DNA of 64,000 bases, from contig NC_087245.1 of the NCBI RefSeq assembly GCF_037042905.1, forward strand, positions 24,988,001 through 25,052,000, written 5' to 3'. Each line of letters starts with the position of its first letter. The stretch's first letter is position 1. The notes below the pieces were generated by a model that saw nothing but the letters and a program-made list of their open reading frames with translations, had not been told where the DNA came from and made no database searches. Both the position numbers and the translations under genes were made by a program. The stretch comes from Lytechinus pictus. Its lineage: Eukaryota. This document shows, piece after piece, positions 5,380-19,100 of the stretch.

Positions 5380-6110
5380 GCGCCAAAGTCATGTAAAACA
5401 TGAATTTGGCGCCCCCCGGTCGAACATCGAATTGGCGCCCCAAAGGTCGAATATAAATTTGGCGCCCCATCCCTAGGTTGAAAATGAATTTGGTGCCCCA
5501 GGAAAAATATCGAATTGGCGCCCCAAAGGTCATATATGAATTTGGGGCCCCCTCCCTATAGGTTGAAAAAACTTGGGCACCTAAGGCAGAACATCAATTC
5601 GGCGCCCCCCCCCCTTCCTAGGTTGAAGAGTAATTCGGCGCCCCAATGTCGAACTTCAATTGGGCGCCCCCTATTTCAAACATCAATTCGGCGCTCCCTA
5701 TAATATGTCGAACACCAATTCGGCGCTCCTAGGTAGAACATAAATTTGGCGCCCCCTATATCAAACTCTAATTCAACCTATGTCGAACATGAATTCGGTG
5801 CCCCTAGGTAGAACATAAATTCAGCGCCCCTAGGTCGAACATCAATAATTTGATGCCCCTAGTTTGAACATAAATTCGGCGCCCCTTGGTAGAACATCAA
5901 TTTGGTGCCCCCTATATCAAACTCTAATTCGGCGCCCCCTATATCAAACTGTAATTCGGCGCCCCTATATGTCGTACTTCATTTCGCTCCCCCTCCCTAT
6001 GTCGATCCTCACTTTGGCGCCATCCTAGACCGAACATAAATTCGCCGACCCCTATATCAAACTCTAATTCGGCGCCCCTATGTGGCTATGTCGAACTTCT
6101 ATTCGGCACC
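5380..6110 (+). repeat. Minisatellite with ~22-24 bp units (AATTCGGCGCCCCCTATATCAAACTCT-like)
   Basis: About 30 successive AATT(C/T)GGCGCCCC cores with variable spacers derived from one consensus. Confidence 0.85.
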
Positions 6111-7494
6111 CCCCCCCCCTTCTTTTTCTTCTTCTCTCTTTCTTTCCCCTTTTTTTTCTCTTTCTCTTCTCCTTTTCCTCCCCTTTTCTTTCCCCTCTTT
6201 TCTTCTTCTTTTTGGCGCCCCCCTTTTCTCCTACACAGGGGGGCGGGGGCGGGCCCCGAAAGGCCCCCCACAATACACGCATGCCCAAGGAAATTCCTGG
6301 GTTTGCCGCTTCCCAGGGCCGTGGCCTCCACTGGCATTTATAGAAGCAAGTTTCATAAAGTTCATATCGAAATTAGCTATTTATGAAAGTATGAAAAGTC
6401 TCAACTTATGGCGATTAAAAATGGCGGGTTTACTTAGTAATACAACTCTTAACATAAAATTCATATGTCCTCCTTAATCGCTGAATATGCTGCTCATCTG
6501 TATAATGTCTCAATTCAACATGATGTTACGTTTTAAACGTTTTGATACTTTTACTGTACCCATTCATCGATTTTTTTTCCCCACACATTGAAAGTGTCCC
6601 GCTTTATATAAAGAAGTTATAAGACCGCTATTATATACAAAAGAATTATTCATCCTCACCTCGATTTTTGTGCCACCGATTGAATGAAACACAATTGCAC
6701 AAAATTAATAACACATTATTATGGTATATACATCCTCGATATCTAAAGCTTCAAATACCTCAAATAAATAACCTGTTTATTAAGATCCAAAATGTTCAGT
6801 CTGTTAAAATGTAATTGGAATTAACACCCTCTCCTTTTGCAGGGACAGTAGAACCAGGGGGCAGGGGACACTTCCCTCCACAATGTCTCCAATAGGAAAA
6901 TATTCTCTTTTTTTTTTTCAAAATGAACTTTGCACTTTGTGATGTAACACGTTCTTTAATCTGCGCATTTTCGCCCTAAAGTCGATTTTCTTTATTTGTT
7001 ATTTATTTCAGATGGCGAAATATTTCTTTCTTTTTTCATTCACTTTTCTTTTTTCGCCTCTGAAGGGCCACGTATAGGCTTACAGTCACTAGCGTACCTA
7101 AGGAAGGCAGGGGGCAGACTGCCCCCCCCCCCCCCTGACGAGTCACAAGCAAAAAAAAAAGGAAGCGAAAAAAGGGGAAAAAAGAAAGAGAAAAAGGGGG
7201 AAGGGTAAAAAGAAAAAAAAAGTTTAAGAGAAAGGGGAAAACAAAAACTGGACTGCAGACTGTCGGAAAAAATTATGAACTGTCGGGAACACGGGGCTGT
7301 TCCAACTGAATCGGTTTTTTAGTTCCACCATCTTTGTCGCTAAATATAAATTAAACTGTACACTTTTATCGGTAAATTGTGATTTTTTACGAAATGCGAC
7401 TTTTAGAGCGCTCTGTACCGATAGTGAGGACGGATTGGGCTGACCAGGGACAGGAAAAGGTAGAGAACAACTTTTAGGTAATATAATTATAACA

Positions 7495-8470
7495 ATACAC
7501 GCTCGCATCAATTTTTAGGTTAGATACATAAGATAAATGTCTAGTTTTCAGGTTGAAATATCAAAAATTTTCAGCTCGCACTTCGCGCTCGCGTCAATTG
7601 ATTAGTTAGAAACCATTTTGTTCACGGTTACAAAAAGTGCTTATAATATCCAGTTCTTAAACCGGAATATCAAAAAATTTTGCTCGTGCTTCGCGCTCAC
7701 ATATATAACTGTTTAGGTATATCCATCCTGTTCATAATTAAATGAAGTGCTTAGAATGTCCGGTTTTCAGGTCGGAATATAAAAAATGAAAATATCAAAA
7801 ATATATCATTAGAAACCAATTTGTTCACGGTTACAAAAATTGCTTAGAATATCAAGTTCTTAGGTCGGAATATCAAAATTTTCAGCTCGAGCTTCGCACT
7901 CGCATAATATTCCATCCTGTTCATAATGAAATGAAGTGCTAAGAATGTAAAGTTTCAGGTCGAAATATCAAAAAATTTCAGTTCGCGCTTCGCGCTCACA
8001 CCAATTAATTGTTTTTAACTATCATCTCGTTCATAGTTTAAAAAAAAAAGGTGCTTAGAATAATCCAGTTTTCAGGAGGGAATATCTCAGATTTTCAGCT
8101 CGCTCTTCGCGCTCGCATAAATTAATTATTCAGTTAGAAACCAATTTGTTCATGGTTACTAAAAGTGCTTAGAATATCCAGTTCTTAAGTCGGAATAACA
8201 AGTTTTAGCTCGCGCTTCGCGCCCGCACAACTGTTTAGATACCCATCCTGTAAAACTGCTTAGAATGTCTAGTGTCCAGTTAGGAATATCAAAATTTTTA
8301 GCTCGCACAATTTATAAAGGAATATACCCTTCATATTCATAATTAAGTGCACAAAATGTATCGTTTTAGGTCTAAATTTTTAGAAAAATTCAGCTCGCGC
8401 TTCGCGCTCGCAATTATTATTTTTATAAGGCTAAATAATAAATGAAATTTGTTTCGCTCGCTCGAAAATC
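7495..8470 (-). repeat. Same ~120-bp tandem family as 4515-5365, in the opposite orientation
   Basis: Recurrent AAAATTTTCAGCTCGCGCTTCGCGCTCGCA..CATCCTGTTCAT..GTGCTTAGAA, the reverse complement of the upstream array. Confidence 0.85.
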
Positions 8471-11301: not shown

Positions 11302-11461
11302 TAAGGTTTATCGCTTATCAGAACCGCAATGCGTTATGGGATCGAAAAGGGGGCCGTTAGCGCACTGCGGACAGTCAGTGCACAGATATAGCTAGCTAGC
11401 TAACGGCCCCTTTTCGATCCAGGCTATGATGCATTGCGGTTCTGATGAGCGATGAACCTTA
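11302..11461. mobile_element. 160-bp hairpin MITE in RPLP0 intron 1
   Basis: ~60-bp arms TAAGGTTTATCGCTTATCAGAACCGCAATGC...GGATCGAAAAGGGGGCCGTTAGC / GCTAACGGCCCCTTTTCGATCC...GCATTGCGGTTCTGATGAGCGATGAACCTTA. Confidence 0.7.
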
Positions 11462-11867: not shown

Positions 11868-14800
11868 ATGGTCAGGGAAGACAAGACCACATGGAAGTCC
11901 AACTACTTCGTCAAACTCATTGTAAGCGTGAGCCTAGTGCTATCCCAATATTACAGCACTTGAAAATACTATCCACATTTGATAATTCAAGCATTTCACA
12001 ATACATGGCCACCAATGTTCGACATTAGCATTGGAGGCCTACTTTTCTTTCCACTTTGGGCCAGTGTTTTCCTAGAAAGCACATGCTGTGAATGACAATG
12101 GAAAATGAAAGAAATCCCAGGTTCAGAAAAGAATAGGGATTGATCAGGCGAACTGGCCCAGTGAGATCCCTGAAAATTGTACTTAATTGAATTTTGTTGT
12201 AATCATTCAGAATAGAAGAGAGATTTGCAATGGCATGAAGTAAGTGTATTGTGCCAACCAATCTCTTGGAAATATGTGTAACTTAACAGCATAAAAGGCA
12301 AAGTGGATGAAATGCTTGAATTGTCATTTGATTAGCTGTTCGAAATATAAAATGAGAAATTTAGAGAAATGTTTATATGATCTGTTGGGAATAAAGTTCA
12401 ATTTATAAGTTTGAATTTCTATGGACCAATTTGAATTTGATATTTGTGGTTTACATATTGTATTTATTTGTGGGGGAGGTCATTGTAGGGTAAAATTGAT
12501 TTTGAACCCTCCATTAATTGCTTGGATCTACCCTTTTGTACATGTATTTGAGAAGATTCTAACAAATTATTATTTTGAAATGAGCCCTTCATTTTTTTGA
12601 AGTTGCAAAATGTCAGACACAATAAAAATTCTGGTGAAAAATACATTTCATGCTCTTTCTCCTTTTCAGGAAAACTTAAATGAGTTTCCCAAGTGCTTCA
12701 TCGTCGGTGTTGACAATGTCGGCTCCAAGCAGATGCAGGCTATCCGTTCCTCTCTACGAGGACATGGTGTTGTCCTCATGGGCAAGAACACCATGATCCG
12801 CAAGGCCATCAGAGGACACTTGGAGAAAGATCCTGGCCTAGAGAAGTAGGTTCATACAGGTTTAGTTCCTTAAAAAAAACAGCAAAAGAAAAACAAGCAA
12901 CTTAAAAGAAAAAAATGCAGGAAAACTTGATAATTTTTTACTATTGTAAAAACCTTTTTTAAGATTAGTTTTACAGTGACTGATTAGAAAACCTGAAAAA
13001 AAGTTAATATTCATTAGACATTTTCTTACTGGGTTTGCTGAGATTACAATTGAAATCATGTTATAATGAGGGATGAAAATGAAAAAGTTAATGAAGAAGA
13101 TTGACCAGGAAATCCCATGTTCTATAGGGTTTACTAGGCCAGTTAATGAGGTTACATCAATGCTTTTTAACAGGTTTTAAGTTGTGGTGGTTTTTGGCAA
13201 GTGGGAGGAAAGATACTGTCTTTGTAGTAGACACTTCAAACAAATGCTTACCAGAAAGGGGATTAACACAATGTGTTGTGCAGGGAGTGTTGGAAGAGCT
13301 GGTTATATAAAATGAAGTGGCTACCAAGCTTTCCTTCCCTTGGTACAGTTAATGGTTATCCATATATGTCTTTTGTTAGTCAATATGTTTTAAGCATCTT
13401 TCTCCCCGTGCTTCTTTTTTTTTTCTGCAGACTCCTTCCTCACATGAAGGGCAATGTTGGTTTTGTGTTCACCAAGGGAGATTTGTTGGAAGTTCGAGAG
13501 TTGATCCTTGCCAACAAGGTAAACACACCCTACAAAAATATGTTCAGGGAGGGGATGGGGGATGTGCTTGAGTAATTATTTTAGGGTCAACTTGATGAAT
13601 TGGTAATATTTGGCTTTTGGGGAGTGTGTTTTGGTTATTATTGGGGTTGGTGCCATGTTTTATGATCATGATGACATAAGGGCACGTTGCCAGTGCGATG
13701 CATAAAGTGCCATCAGAGCCAGAAATGGCTGAACCCACTGAAGGCCCGCATCCCACGTTGACCAAAAAAACAAGCCCTTATTAACACGTCTGAATCATAA
13801 AAGAATGATGCCACTTACCTCTATAGTAGACCTTCCTAGGCCAAGGCCTATATTTCAAATTTGTTGACATTTGGGATAATTTTATGAAAATTTGCTTTTC
13901 ATTGATGCCAATCAGTTGGTATATTGCTACGTGTGATTATTAAATAATGTTATAACACCTTTAATAAGCACAAAGTTTCAAAGCACAGCCCATCTTTAAA
14001 ATGCTCCATGGTTGTTGCTAGAAAAGATGTTGTTTGAGCTATATATATATGAATAGTATACTTTGATCTATCAGATTTGATTTAACTTAGATGAGCTGCA
14101 AATATGATATTGAGTATGGATTGAATTCAAAGTGAATCCAAAATGTAAAAACCTGCCAAATGGGAAGTATGGCCATGAATTTTGAGCTTGCCTATTTTGT
14201 GTTACATCACCCAAATCTAATGAAAGCACATTGTTATCAAGCAAGATTTTTTTCTCTCCTGTCACTATATAAAAACAAATCGCCTCCTGCCCCCTTTGCA
14301 TTAATCTTATAAGAACAGTTGCAGCTGCATTGTCAGGAGGAACATTGTACTGGTAAGCTAAACATTTAAATGGCTATTGTGATTTTTCTTTTTTTTACAA
14401 ATAGCTTCCTATAAATGTATGTTTACACTTGTCCACAATGTTGTCTTGAACAGGTTGCTGCCCCAGCCAAGGCCGGTGCTCTTGCACCCATCGATGTGTT
14501 CATTGATGGCCACAACACTGGTTTGGGACCCGAGAAGACCTCCTTCTTCCAGGCTCTCTCCATCGCCACCAAGATCGCCAGGGGAACCATTGAAATCTTG
14601 GTAAGAATCTGGTCTCTTCATGTTGATTATCGAGAAGGAGAAAAGGATATTAATAGGATCAAGGCATAAATTTGAAGAGATGGGGGGGGGGTCCAAAGTA
14701 GGCAATCTCCATCAAAGAGTCGAGTATTTACTTGAGGTAACTGGTAATGATGATCTGAGGGCATGTTGCCAGTGCGATGCATAAAGTGCCATCAGAGCCA

Positions 14801-17398
14801 GAAATGGCTGAACCCACTGAAGGCCAGCATCCCACGTTGACCAAAAACCAGCCCCTGATAATGTGTCTGAGCCAGTTTCCTTTGTTGACAAGAGCCTTTC
14901 TGAAATGGAGCAGCCAAGTTCATTGTAGAATTTCTTTGTCATTGTAGTACATAGTTTGCTATTTCAGAGGAATGTTAGTGTGGTCTTTATACACGATTAC
15001 CAACAGATTTTAAACAAGTTCTCTTTTTCCCTTCCAATGGAATGGACTCGGATGCCCTTGTCTGTGCTCCTGCGACATTTGCTCCAATCGTAATTTATCA
15101 GAGGGCACAGGGTTCGAGTTCGGATTGTAATAGTTTTTGGTTTAGAATAATGTACAGATAAATAATAGGTTTATGTAGTCATGGAGGTTCGGTTTTATGT
15201 TTGGCATATCATGCAAACTTCCCAGCAATTGTTGCTGAAACAATGACATGGAACCGTGTTACTTGATGAGTGTAATCAATTGTTCAGTTCTTTAGTTCTG
15301 GGCCCGTCAAAGAGTTACTATCGATCCAATCAATCGTAACTCTATGGAAATCCATCAGTGTCATAATTTCTTCTACAGGAAATTTGTAAAGAAATGTCCT
15401 TTGTAAACAAAGGAGAACACACCAAATTGTCAAGAAATAAATGAATTTATAGATATACATTCATATCTAGAAAAAATTTTGAACAAACATGGCATTTTAT
15501 ATGTTGACGTTGCTGGCCGTCCATAGTTGCAATTGATCGGATCAATCTCAACTCTTTGTAAGATGGGGCCCAGAAATATAGTGTTATTCACTTTGTTATT
15601 GAATATGTATTTTGTCCTACAGAACAAGGTACATCTGATCAAGAAGGATGAGAAGGTAGGAGCTTCTGAGGCTACCCTGCTTCAGATGTTGAAGATCTTC
15701 CCATTTTCATATGGTCTCCAGATTCGCCAAGGTGAGTCTTCAGGGATTCCCTACTACTACTCAAATAACATGCTTGTTATTCAATGCCTGAAACAAGTTG
15801 AAGTTCTTCTGAATTCATTTAGTGCTTTATTCGCATCTAATAGAATGAAATCAATATTCTATGGATTTCTATTCAGATCGTTATTTGTTTTTTGTTATAA
15901 ACTAGCTTTTAGAGGATATTATAGTGAAATCTGTTTGTAGCTTTGTTAATTGCCTCTTATTTGCAATGTAGGTATAGCTTTATTGTACTGACTTGTTTGT
16001 GTTCTAGTTCTTATTTAAATTGTTATTCGTTCAATATGCAGAGTATTCCACTTTTCATCATTATTTGGGCTGAAACTAAATAAATTGTTAAAAAACAATA
16101 TTTTTTTCTAGTGAAAATATAAATTTTGTAGCATGTTTTAGATCTAAGATTCCACCTATTTTAGGAAAGCTTCAAATAAATCCAACTAGATGACACTAAC
16201 AAATAAATATGCCCCTTTGCATATACCAGAAACACAACTTGAAGCTCATTAAGTCTTCAGAACAAGACTTTGTCATGCATATCACTTAAATGAAAGAAGC
16301 TTCTTTTTTTAGAACTTGCCTACTGACTGGGCTCGTTATTATCACTGTGTTGTTTTTTGTTTGATTTCTACATCCTGCAGTGTACCAGGATGGCTCTGTA
16401 TTCCAGCCCAGTATCTTGGATATTACTGATGCTGACATTCATGCGAAGTTCATTGCCGGCGTCGCCAACGTGGCCGCACTCTGCCTGCAGATTGGCTATC
16501 CGACCCTTGCCAGCGTACCTCACTCCGTCGTCAACGGCTTCAAGAACGTCCTGGCTATTGCTGTGGCAACAGAGATCACATTCCCCCAGGCAGAGCAAGT
16601 AAGCACCTGGCCTCGTAGCTTTCCTTGGACCATTGTAGAAACACAAGTCTCTGATTGAAAATCAAGTTGCTTTGGGGGTTTAGCAATGGTCTTACGATCC
16701 AATTCAAACTGCTCGATCTACTGTAATCTAAAGCTGTTGTCATGTTATGAAATCAAACTATGTTTTCCTTTCATATTGTGCCTTTGGAGAAGCTTGGGGA
16801 ATCCAGTTGTAATTTACTAATTTGGTTGGATGGTGTATTGATGACTAGAACTATTGACCTCAGACCAGGAGAAAAGTCGTCAGGTTATTTATGAGATGCT
16901 TCCTCTTTTTAGCTTGGGAGTACATGTATTGTACATGTCATATATGCATTTTCCCCTCTAAACAGGGTCCATTTCATAGTGACTTAAAATTCTTCAAAAT
17001 TTATTATAGTAGCTTCCATTGAAATTTTGATTGTGATAGGCTGCAGAGCCCTTTTACCAAGGTAGTTGCCATAATGCCAAAGTTGCAACTGTTGTTGTAT
17101 CTCTTTTTAAAATAGGCCCTAGGATTTGGATTGAGATGGAAAGGGCATTTTGCCCATGTTGTGTTGGTATGAGATCTTGTGAGGCCATCTTCCCAAGAGT
17201 AGATAACCATCCATCTTGAATGTGTCTTTTTTTTTCACTCAATAGGCAAAGGCCTTCCTGGCTGATCCATCAGCGTTCTTGGCAGCAACTGCGGCGGCTG
17301 CTCCAGCGGCTGCTGAGGAAACAAAGGAAGAAGAACCCAAGAAGGAGGAATCCGAGGAGGAATCCGACGACGACATGGGATTCGGACTCTTTGACTAG
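11868..17398 (+). CDS. RPLP0: 60S acidic ribosomal protein P0 (uL10), 314 aa; exons 11868-11921, 12670-12845, 13431-13518, 14454-14600, 15623-15731, 16381-16598, 17246-17398
   Basis: [60 protein letters not shown]-terminal [17 protein letters not shown]. All introns GT-AG and the frame is consistent (945 nt). Confidence 0.98.
13663..13797 (+). ncRNA. SNORD22: C/D box snoRNA, U22/SNORD22-like (copy 1, RPLP0 intron 4)
   Basis: C box ATGATGA at 13668, D box CTGA at 13790, terminal stem TTTTATGAT/ATCATAAAA, ~125 nt box to box. Core CAGAGCCAGAAATGGCTGAACCCACTG resembles the vertebrate U22 core as recalled (CAGAGCC..GGUGAACCCACUG). Confidence 0.85.
14199..14347 (+). ncRNA. Candidate H/ACA box snoRNA (RPLP0 intron 4)
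   Basis: 3' hairpin CCTCCTG/CAGGAGG followed by A-ACA-TTG (ACA at 14342-14344). A-rich ANANNA-type hinge at ~14270-14279. Weaker 5' hairpin (AAATCT/AGATTT). Confidence 0.4.
14742..14874 (+). ncRNA. SNORD22: C/D box snoRNA, U22/SNORD22-like (copy 2, RPLP0 intron 5)
   Basis: C box ATGATGA at 14747, D box CTGA at 14867, terminal stem AACTGGT/GCCAGTT. Core nearly identical to copy 1. Confidence 0.85.
15298..15573. mobile_element. MITE (PIF/Harbinger-like), same family as 24533-24811
   Basis: Inverted termini CTGGGCCCGTC..AAAGAGTTAC ... CAACTCTTTGTAAGATGGGGCCCAG; near-identical second copy in the window. Confidence 0.8.
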
Positions 17399-17748
17399 CC
17401 AACTTGCTCTCATCGACTCACTAGCTTGCAGTAAAATGGGACAAGAACAACCTCAACCTTCTGATGAGTTTGATAAATTGGTGCACTCCTTGTGAATGCT
17501 AGTGGACTATTGGTCTGCTCTGCCATTCACCATTATTTCATAAACACTTTCAAGAAAATGATATCTTCTGCAAGTTAATGATGGCAGTCCATCTTCTGCA
17601 CATGAACTCTTGTTTTGGTAAAGACAGAGCTTATAAGCTTAACTCCAAAGTTGTTAATTTCTCAGTATTTTCATAGTCCCTTTTTACTGCATGTTTGTGA
17701 TTGCAAGCATATGGGATGAACATTTTAGTTTCAATGTGTGATGAGATG

Positions 17749-17789: not shown

Positions 17790-19100
17790 ATTTGTGTGTA
17801 CATTGCTAGGGATCACATGATATAGACGACAGCAAATAGTGTTTTACAAATCACTTCTCAAACAAACTCAAAGGTCGACCCAAGTGCCATATGGGGAAAG
17901 AGGGCTAAAGCAAGTTCAGTATTGTGTGACTGATCTCTGTTGTGTGAGGAGTGTGGAAATTGGATTCACTGGAGATGCACAAAGGTGAAGTTCAAGTGAC
18001 CCAAAGTTTTGCAAGAGATTTTGTGGGGAAGATGCCAGAGAAGAGATCGAGAAGCCTGAAGTTTAGGCGGATTTACAGCTGTACCTTTACTGTTGCAATT
18101 AAATGCATCTGATGCTGGGAGACTACAGTGAGTGCGAGGCAACCACCCCCTATACACTCCCATCTTGCTTTAATTGTCATTTTCTTTTTATCAACTCCAA
18201 TGTGGTGCAGGTTTTTCGTACAAGAAATTGCCGTCAGACGATTGTCAACAAAAAGGGGGGGGGAAGGCTTTTAAAGCAAGGCTAGTGTTTGGGCGGTGGC
18301 TGCTTGTAGTCTCGCTGCATCTGACGTTGTGCGTAACAGCAGCATGCAGACTTGTATTAGCAAAGAAATAGTTGCAGCCCCCGTCTCGATTATAGACAAA
18401 GGTTGTGGGTGGTGGTGGTTGATGCAAGTCTGCTGTGACAGGTAGAGCGAGATTAAGATGGGCGAGAATGGAGAGTTGTTGCATGGGATAAGATTTTCTT
18501 TGAAGGGGAAGAGAATAGTGTATAAGAGTTGTGCAAGATTAACGATGCTGGGTATGAGTGAGACAATGGCCCGAATTCCTAAAGATGGTTTTGAAAACCA
18601 TTGGCTGAACCCATGGTTTATGCAGATTTCCTGTATAAATTATGTTTATTTATTGCGTATATTAGCAAAATGTCCAAGGCTGATGCGCGCTCGTCACAAT
18701 GCGCCAAATTTACGACCGTTGCCATGCTTATGTATGCTATTTTATTCAGGAGTTCACAGTTCTGAAGAGTAGACTCAAAGCAGTGGACTCGCGAATAAAA
18801 CAACATACCATGGCAACAGCCATCAATTTACCGCCCTGTGATAAAAGCTTGCATCAGCATTGGACATTTTTCTAATATAGACTACGCGGTAAATAAACAT
18901 AATTTATACATATATATGCGTAAACCATGGGTTCAATCGATGGTTTTCAAAACCGCCCTTGGAAATTTGGGCCATTGTGTTTGATTGAAAATGATTGTGA
19001 GGACAGAGAGCGATGTTCTAAGTCTAGGCGATGAATAAGAAGGCAGAGCACTTAATGTACATGTTGGGGTTTGGAAGGAGAGGTGGACCAGTTTGGTGAA
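17790..19100 (+). pseudogene. Highly degenerate non-LTR retrotransposon (RTE-like) ORF C-terminal relic, interrupted by a MITE
   Basis: Frame-shifted peptides SLLCEECGNWIHWRCTKVK, GCKSAVTGRARLRW and GELLHGIRFSLKGKRIVYKSCARLTMLGMSET resemble the RT thumb-region KGxxYxxCVRxxMLYGSETW signature. Confidence 0.6.
18568..18973. mobile_element. ~400-bp palindromic MITE nested in the LINE relic
   Basis: TGGCCCGAATTCCTAAAGATGGTTTTGAAAACCAT ... ATGGTTTTCAAAACCGCCCTTGGAAATTTGGGCCA; arms pair over ~100 bp. Confidence 0.8.

Follow-up and report, generated by a model that had tools for sequence, protein, structure and literature searches.

A folded transposon relic in an RPLP0 intron of Lytechinus pictus and its possible recruitment to splicing

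The RPLP0 locus

The window analyzed here is a 64,000-nt stretch of the Lytechinus pictus genome (contig NC_087245.1 of GCF_037042905.1, positions 24,988,001 to 25,052,000 of the forward strand), and all coordinates count from its first nucleotide. The host gene was identified as uL10/RPLP0 by a PF00466 domain match. Two of its exons enclose the intron of interest:

11868..11921, + strand: RPLP0 exon upstream of the intron, coding part; donor GTAAGC at 11922
12670..12845, + strand: RPLP0 exon downstream of the intron (PF00466)

The fold described below sits inside this 748-nt intron (11922-12669). The junction 11921>12670 is backed by 37, 50, and 34 reads (121 in total), counted in about 6% of each of three rRNA-depleted libraries; these were made without NMD inhibition. 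The designation "intron 2" depends on an upstream exon that was inferred from sequence only. The RNA reads carry numerous fixed differences from the assembly (16412-17588), including about eight over an 84-nt piece of the 3′-UTR; the three runs, which bear the same species label, thus appear to come from a divergent population or a cryptic species. A search of public runs returned three entries containing part of the stretch, all from one organism, and no RNA run was among them.

Predicted fold of the intron element

The region 11980-12326 has a minimum free energy (MFE) of −112.2 kcal/mol (z −5.7), and none of 100 shuffled sequences was as low. Its predicted parts are listed below, where TIR denotes the terminal inverted repeat of the dispersed repeat treated in the next section, and the ancestor is its reconstructed consensus.

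11980..11998, + strand: closing helix, 5′ arm; 15 nt of the left TIR (11984-98) and 4 nt at or beyond its edge
12308..12326, + strand: closing helix, 3′ arm; right TIR (12308-22; the inner 11 nt of the TIR are lost) and 4 nt
12007..12039, + strand: hairpin 1; three of six inner pairs impossible in the ancestor
12050..12058, + strand: helix a, 5′ strand; pairs with 12299-12307; new in the RPLP0 copy
12057..12065, + strand: helix b, 5′ strand; pairs with 12152-12160; 9 bp; −16.2 kcal/mol; crosses helix c
12152..12160, + strand: helix b, 3′ strand
12064..12082, + strand: hairpin 2; covers the pyrimidine tract and the G of the 12075 AG
12083..12089, + strand: helix c, 5′ strand; pairs with 12286-12292
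12286..12307, + strand: 3′ strands of helix c (12286-92) and helix a (12299-12307)
12113..12171, + strand: either-or pairing; GGGAT (12136-40) pairs with 12113-18 or 12166-71
12219..12266, + strand: hairpin with the donor in its loop; pairs mostly possible in the ancestor too

All four helices named in the initial annotation were found at the positions it had given, and the 19-bp closing helix contains a single U-G pair. Among 252 genomic tiles of 347 nt, five contain a helix of at least 19 Watson-Crick or G-U pairs. The pairing GGGCCAGT/ACTGGCCC, described there as 8 bp long, is present but comprises 9 bp (helix b); the nested ensemble gives it a probability of 0, and imposing it raises the energy by 7 kcal/mol. 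The view that the pyrimidine tract is paired holds for 12050-57 and 12064-71, while 12040-12049 is predicted to be unpaired; likewise, of the AG ending at 12075, which had been placed in a hairpin loop, the A lies in the loop but the G does not. In agreement with the annotation, which had recognized no known family here, Rfam gave no match over the cut-off in the window and none that was relevant at E values up to 10.

Identification of the element as a dispersed repeat

We searched the genome (812 Mb in 368 contigs) for related sequences. The first DNA similarity search returned two hits, that is, one other, decayed copy, which suggested a single-copy element with one retrocopy; this interpretation was overturned by the family of 74 copies described here. 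A 20-nt pattern common to the RPLP0 copy and the decayed copy had 84 genome matches, as compared with 15 for the control. Of the 82 other matches retrieved, 28 were homologous in their flanks, beyond the seed, and 36 grouped into one cluster, with their 5′ edges concentrated at the edge of the element. Two further searches (40 and 35 loci listed, 30 retrieved from each), the second of which used the TIR motif (35 genome matches versus 0 for the control), enlarged the set to 74 copies. Only 4 of 39 matches in the first of these were among the earlier 36 copies; this small overlap suggests about 340 copies or more. The family therefore numbers no fewer than 74 copies and probably runs to several hundred. 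The copies are spread over many contigs and are non-coding (longest stop-free stretch, 63 aa).

The consensus built from the 74 copies is 375 bp long and carries 28-bp TIRs, and conservation stops at a terminal AATT. The RPLP0 copy matches it from end to end (nhmmer E 7e-17) and is its sole match in the window:

11983..12323, + strand: whole copy of an old TIR-bearing dispersed repeat (MITE-like); 74.5% identity to the reconstructed ancestor
11976..11983, + strand: 8-nt direct repeat with 12325-12332; resembles a target duplication, although the family shows none

Fifteen of the 19 closing-helix pairs are the family TIRs. The initial annotation had treated the fold as a single element unrelated to repeats and had itself named a match to a dispersed repeat as grounds for giving up this view; since 11983-12323 is a copy of such a repeat, we have given it up. 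Comparison with the sister copies shows the element to be a MITE-like relic, apparently an old non-autonomous DNA transposon inserted in the RPLP0 intron. It resembles MITEs in being short, non-coding, and dispersed, and in having 28-bp TIRs that fold back. It differs from them in two respects: 29 two-ended copies gave no signal of a target duplication at lengths of 2-11 outside AATT, and the RPLP0 copy gained interior stems that are absent from its sisters. The terminal AATT itself could be the duplicated target site. A bare repeat of this kind is ordinary; the practical point is that long intronic closing helices deserve to be checked against old repeats, since plain similarity searching gave only two hits here.

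Two transposon groups were considered and rejected. hAT transposons make an 8-bp target duplication, whereas the 8-bp flanks of the 29 copies have a mean identity of 0.28, and only the RPLP0 copy has 7 of 8 positions in common. Ginger transposons have TGTNR ends, TIRs of at least 40 bp, and a 4-bp duplication (PMC2836005); inside the AATT, the present family ends in TGTGC and has a TIR of about 23 bp. A scan of viral contigs yielded 35 matches, the best with an alignment score of 36, which were taken as chance. The decayed copy returned by the first search (C13) has itself received an insertion of a high-copy repeat with a tRNA-like head (2502 candidates; L002, about 1660-1890).

Gain of structure in the RPLP0 copy

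The interior of the family consensus is unfolded (z +1.0, or −0.5 after CpG correction). In 29 copies that passed length and identity filters, the mean interior z was 0.0, as compared with −3.6 (sense) and −2.0 (antisense) in the RPLP0 copy; two of the 29 reach −4.1 and −3.3, both being only partly homologous in the alignment. The folding energy per nucleotide was then compared over 54 of the 74 copies (at least 250 aligned bases, 72% identity, no insert longer than 15 nt): it is −0.294 in the RPLP0 copy versus −0.195 ± 0.027 in the sisters, and none of the 54 is as low. Neutral descendants simulated from the consensus were also never as stable (0/400, 0/300, and 0/1619, the last set being GC-matched; z −4.4). 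The lowest simulated value, −0.287, is near the observed one; for this reason, and given the number of copies in the family, a single chance outlier is possible on the MFE alone.

The stems were next examined individually. Pairs that were impossible or absent in the ancestor account for 5 of 9 in helix a, 7 of 9 in helix b, 5 of 7 in helix c, and 4 of 8 in hairpin 2, counts that depend on a single alignment. Helix b, which lies outside the MFE structure, is the strongest interior helix and is equalled by one of the 54 copies and by 0.07% of 1500 simulations. At least as many helices of 7 bp or longer are seen in 12 of 400 simulations and in one of the 54 copies. The RPLP0 copy is also the most diverged, or tied for this position (74.5% versus 80.1 ± 2.7%, n = 51). 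As for the TIRs, all 15 pairs are kept in one of 19 two-ended copies, six of seven double changes in other copies are compensated, and two of the three changes in the RPLP0 copy also occur in a TIR variant carried by a few further copies.

The proposal of the initial annotation that the RNA is under selection is thus supported in part, as the interior structure is new, sense-biased, and beyond that of sisters and simulations. Helices a, b, and c arose in the RPLP0 copy, as did the GTAAGT donor and the YAG acceptor; together with the stability of the interior, this suggests selection on the sense-strand RNA, and we consider it rather probable that the fold is under selection. Two caveats apply to this estimate: the copy was picked from several hundred for looking folded, and template switching during replication can create perfect stems in one step without selection, as described in the available text of PMC8794818. 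The repeat was found in none of the RPLP0 loci sampled from metagenomes, which belong to distant animals. If selection drove the gain, the locus would offer a rare, reconstructable start of a structured regulatory RNA in which each new pair can be dated, and its host, RPLP0, is a dosage-sensitive ribosomal protein gene.

Splice signals and the candidate cryptic exon

The AG dinucleotides at 12064, 12075, and 12210, the GTAAGT at 12240, and the in-frame TGA for an exon starting at 12076 were all confirmed as the initial annotation had reported them. They delimit the following features:

12076..12239, + strand: candidate cryptic exon, 164 nt; stop TGA 12106-12108
12240..12245, + strand: GTAAGT donor; the commonest sister state is GTACAC

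If the exon were included, translation would end after 28 codons, giving an alternative form with a premature stop. The donor is predicted to be largely open, and the tract of the 12075 acceptor is predicted to be buried in hairpin 2. At the donor position, none of 63 sister copies has GT[AG]AG, and GTAAGT occurs anywhere in 6 of 74 copies; at the acceptor position, a tract with YAG is seen in 2 of 49. In 3000 simulations, a strong acceptor together with a GTRAGT donor appeared in 2.9%, and GTAAGT alone in 11%. Under a loose rule, GTAAGT with an upstream acceptor is common in the genome (27 of 232 tiles of 748 nt).

No read supports the cryptic exon, as compared with the 121 reads of the normal junction, in these libraries from divergent animals, and the read depth over 12064-12551 is 0 in all three. 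Inclusion would accordingly amount to less than about 2.5% of steady-state mRNA, a soft bound: the reads are divergent, the count refers to the junctions listed (127 weaker ones lie outside), and unproductive forms may need an NMD block. Unproductive isoforms of ribosomal proteins can be visible only in NMD mutants, according to the accessible part of PMC4937301. The assembled contigs of one run (X1) include one unspliced piece (12134-12446) with a depth of 3.5 versus about 6000-7800 on the exon junctions; because contigs drop rare forms, this picture was not counted against the exon.

Comparison with 28S rRNA and SNORA53

The initial annotation had suggested that P0 binds the fold through rRNA mimicry. 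uL10 and uL11 contact the Kt-42/H43/H44 core of the rRNA. Word sharing between the element and this core in the species' own 28S is at background (p 0.16-0.32), which speaks against the suggestion. In the wider H42-H44 region, three words of 8-10 nt recur in the element, a sharing above that of copies and simulations (p 0.004-0.01); this region was bounded post hoc, as two of the three words sit at the base of H42 and set its edges. Five of 51 sister copies reach the same score somewhere in 28S. A scan for a kink-turn with UAA gave one weak candidate and missed its rRNA control. The host gene is the homologue of L10, in which respect the element resembles the bacterial L10(L12)4 leader; there, according to the available text of PMC4538822, L10 binding needs a kink-turn and an unpaired UAA, whereas the site in the element is at most putative. 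The literature listings, which covered few subscription papers, contained no report of the element or of intronic autoregulation of RPLP0. Autoregulation by P0 is unsupported, and uL10 would join the autoregulated ribosomal proteins if the fold proved to act on splicing.

A scan of metagenomes for the same exon-intron border found at least 119 stretches, about 19 of them from RPLP0. In one group of related animals, SNORA53 was detected in the orthologous intron at six of nine loci scanned (58-84 bits; L028 445-705, L030, L041, L047, L063, and L073), and the other three gave no match. L. pictus itself has a true, enlarged SNORA53 with an intact guide in a mitochondrial carrier gene, which we take from its peptide to be SLC25A3. 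This RNA (L129 1322-1714) is about 390 nt long; its 5′ hairpin is greatly extended, and the RNA contains an internal, partial repeat of the 5′ block. Rfam scores no more than a portion of it, at 37.7 bits, just below the cut-off. Judged against the species' own 28S, the bipartite guide is present in it, and the upstream guide is missing in the RPLP0 intron element. In human, SNORA53 lies in SLC25A3 and guides two 28S pseudouridines from the proximal 5′ hairpin (PMC8763049, available text), so that RPLP0 as the host in those other animals differs from the human host gene. The element did not match the SNORA53 family model (H box, 3′ hairpin, ACA), and a custom covariance model built from eight sequences gave it only 4.4 bits. 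Because of this low score, and because a true SNORA53 exists elsewhere in the genome, the element is not regarded as SNORA53.

Possible function of the fold

We tentatively read the element as a MITE relic whose fold was recruited to act in cis on the splicing of its intron, a reading that we regard as nearly evenly balanced. An old DNA transposon landed in the RPLP0 intron, where its TIRs close a long pre-mRNA helix. As the comparison with its sisters shows, the copy later acquired helices a, b, and c, hairpin 2, some of hairpin 1, an improved acceptor, and a donor matching the consensus. Selection may then have retained the fold for its effect on its own intron, of which it would loop out 347 of 748 nt. 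By default, the tract of the 12075 acceptor would be buried in hairpin 2, and skipping of the 164-nt exon would follow. Since positions 12064-65 are claimed by both helix b and hairpin 2, and helix b also crosses helix c, a second fold could expose the acceptor, and the resulting stop-containing mRNA would be subject to NMD. Should the fold have been recruited in this way, true gating of the exon and plain masking or assistance of splicing seem about equally probable. It is unlikely that point changes and small indels rebuilt the decayed transposon into a two-state or pseudoknotted RNA switch that sets RPLP0 output through a poison exon, perhaps by sensing P0 or the P-stalk; if they did, the origin of a feedback switch could be followed one change at a time from the ancestral state given by at least 70 sister copies.

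Among known systems, the closest in working is SNORD2-EIF4A2, where, as far as the available text of PMC10324135 describes it, an intronic fold hides splice signals. Both have a long intronic duplex placed to alter exon inclusion and NMD, but there the folding partner is a snoRNA, whereas here it is a transposon relic whose effect would be of the same kind; the likeness is one of working only, and the element is a member of no snoRNA family. The intronic alternative splice signals leading to a premature stop also recall AS-NMD autoregulation (L10ARE of RPL10A; rpl-12; RPL3). L10ARE spans 39 nt, its conservation reaches from nematodes to vertebrates, and its binding has been demonstrated (PMC4937301, accessible part), while the RPLP0 element is 340 nt long, repeat-derived, and absent from the other animals sampled, and its isoform and binding are only putative.

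The main alternative to recruitment is that the element is a neutral, decaying MITE copy whose stems were made by TIR pairing, chance, and template switching, and which was picked as the best folded of hundreds. Its homology to the repeat over the whole length, a divergence within the family range, the concerted TIR changes elsewhere in the family, the one-step stems that template switching can make (PMC8794818, available text), and the lack of reads on the element all agree with this account; yet the sisters underwent the same processes and none of the 54 folds as well, the MFE excess is a signal distinct from helix b, and the sense strand folds better than the antisense strand. We hold neutrality to be doubtful, though a serious candidate. 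A model in which the fold mimics rRNA and, once bound by uL10/P0 or the P-stalk, turns on the poison exon would suit the derived donor in its loop, the derived acceptor, the stop codon, and the word sharing with the wider H42-H44 region, and unproductive isoforms can need NMD mutants to show (PMC4937301, accessible part). This idea is quite unlikely, as the Kt-42/H43/H44 core shows only background sharing, the wider region was set after the matches, five of 51 copies do equally well, Rfam gives no match, and skipping accounts for all 121 reads.

A stable intron-derived RNA with its own function, closed by the long helix, would accord with the paired ends and with the snoRNA-like RNAs in other RPLP0 introns, but the depth of 0 over the element, as compared with 9.4, 0.95, and 14.3 (sense-mate column) in the bin 14748-14991 holding a C/D-like RNA, all from reads of divergent animals, and the lack of an Rfam match make it very unlikely. 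Least probable, to a degree that leaves it hardly credible, is a relic or chimera of SNORA53 (RF00563). This RNA occupies the same intron in other animals, and the two share a loose layout of two blocks with an a-b helix; indeed, a two-block profile scores the intron at 35.4, higher than all 236 tiles, all 300 shuffles, and all 51 sister copies. Nevertheless, with the species' own SNORA53 alone as the query, 41 of 236 tiles score as high, the covariance models miss the element (E 5.6), nhmmer finds nothing, pairwise p values range over 0.06-0.93, and the blocks forming its body align to the repeat consensus. We regard the two-block likeness as faint.

Other RNAs and repeats in the window

Other foldback repeats in the window lie at 11302-11461, 15308-15571, and 18563-18978; many divergent reads on both strands indicate that 15308-15571 belongs to a high-copy family. 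A duplicated C/D-box-like RNA was found in two later RPLP0 introns (13662-13800 and 14742-14878; 93% identity over 106 nt). It had no Rfam match and no 10-nt complement in the rDNA stretch compared, and a test of its likeness to U22 gave nothing. An RPLP0 intron of another animal contains a related RNA with C/D ends (L070 2493-2635) that shares a 17-nt core, and the C/D-like RNA is likely to be an undescribed conserved snoRNA. Reads are present on its second copy, in the bin whose depths are given above.
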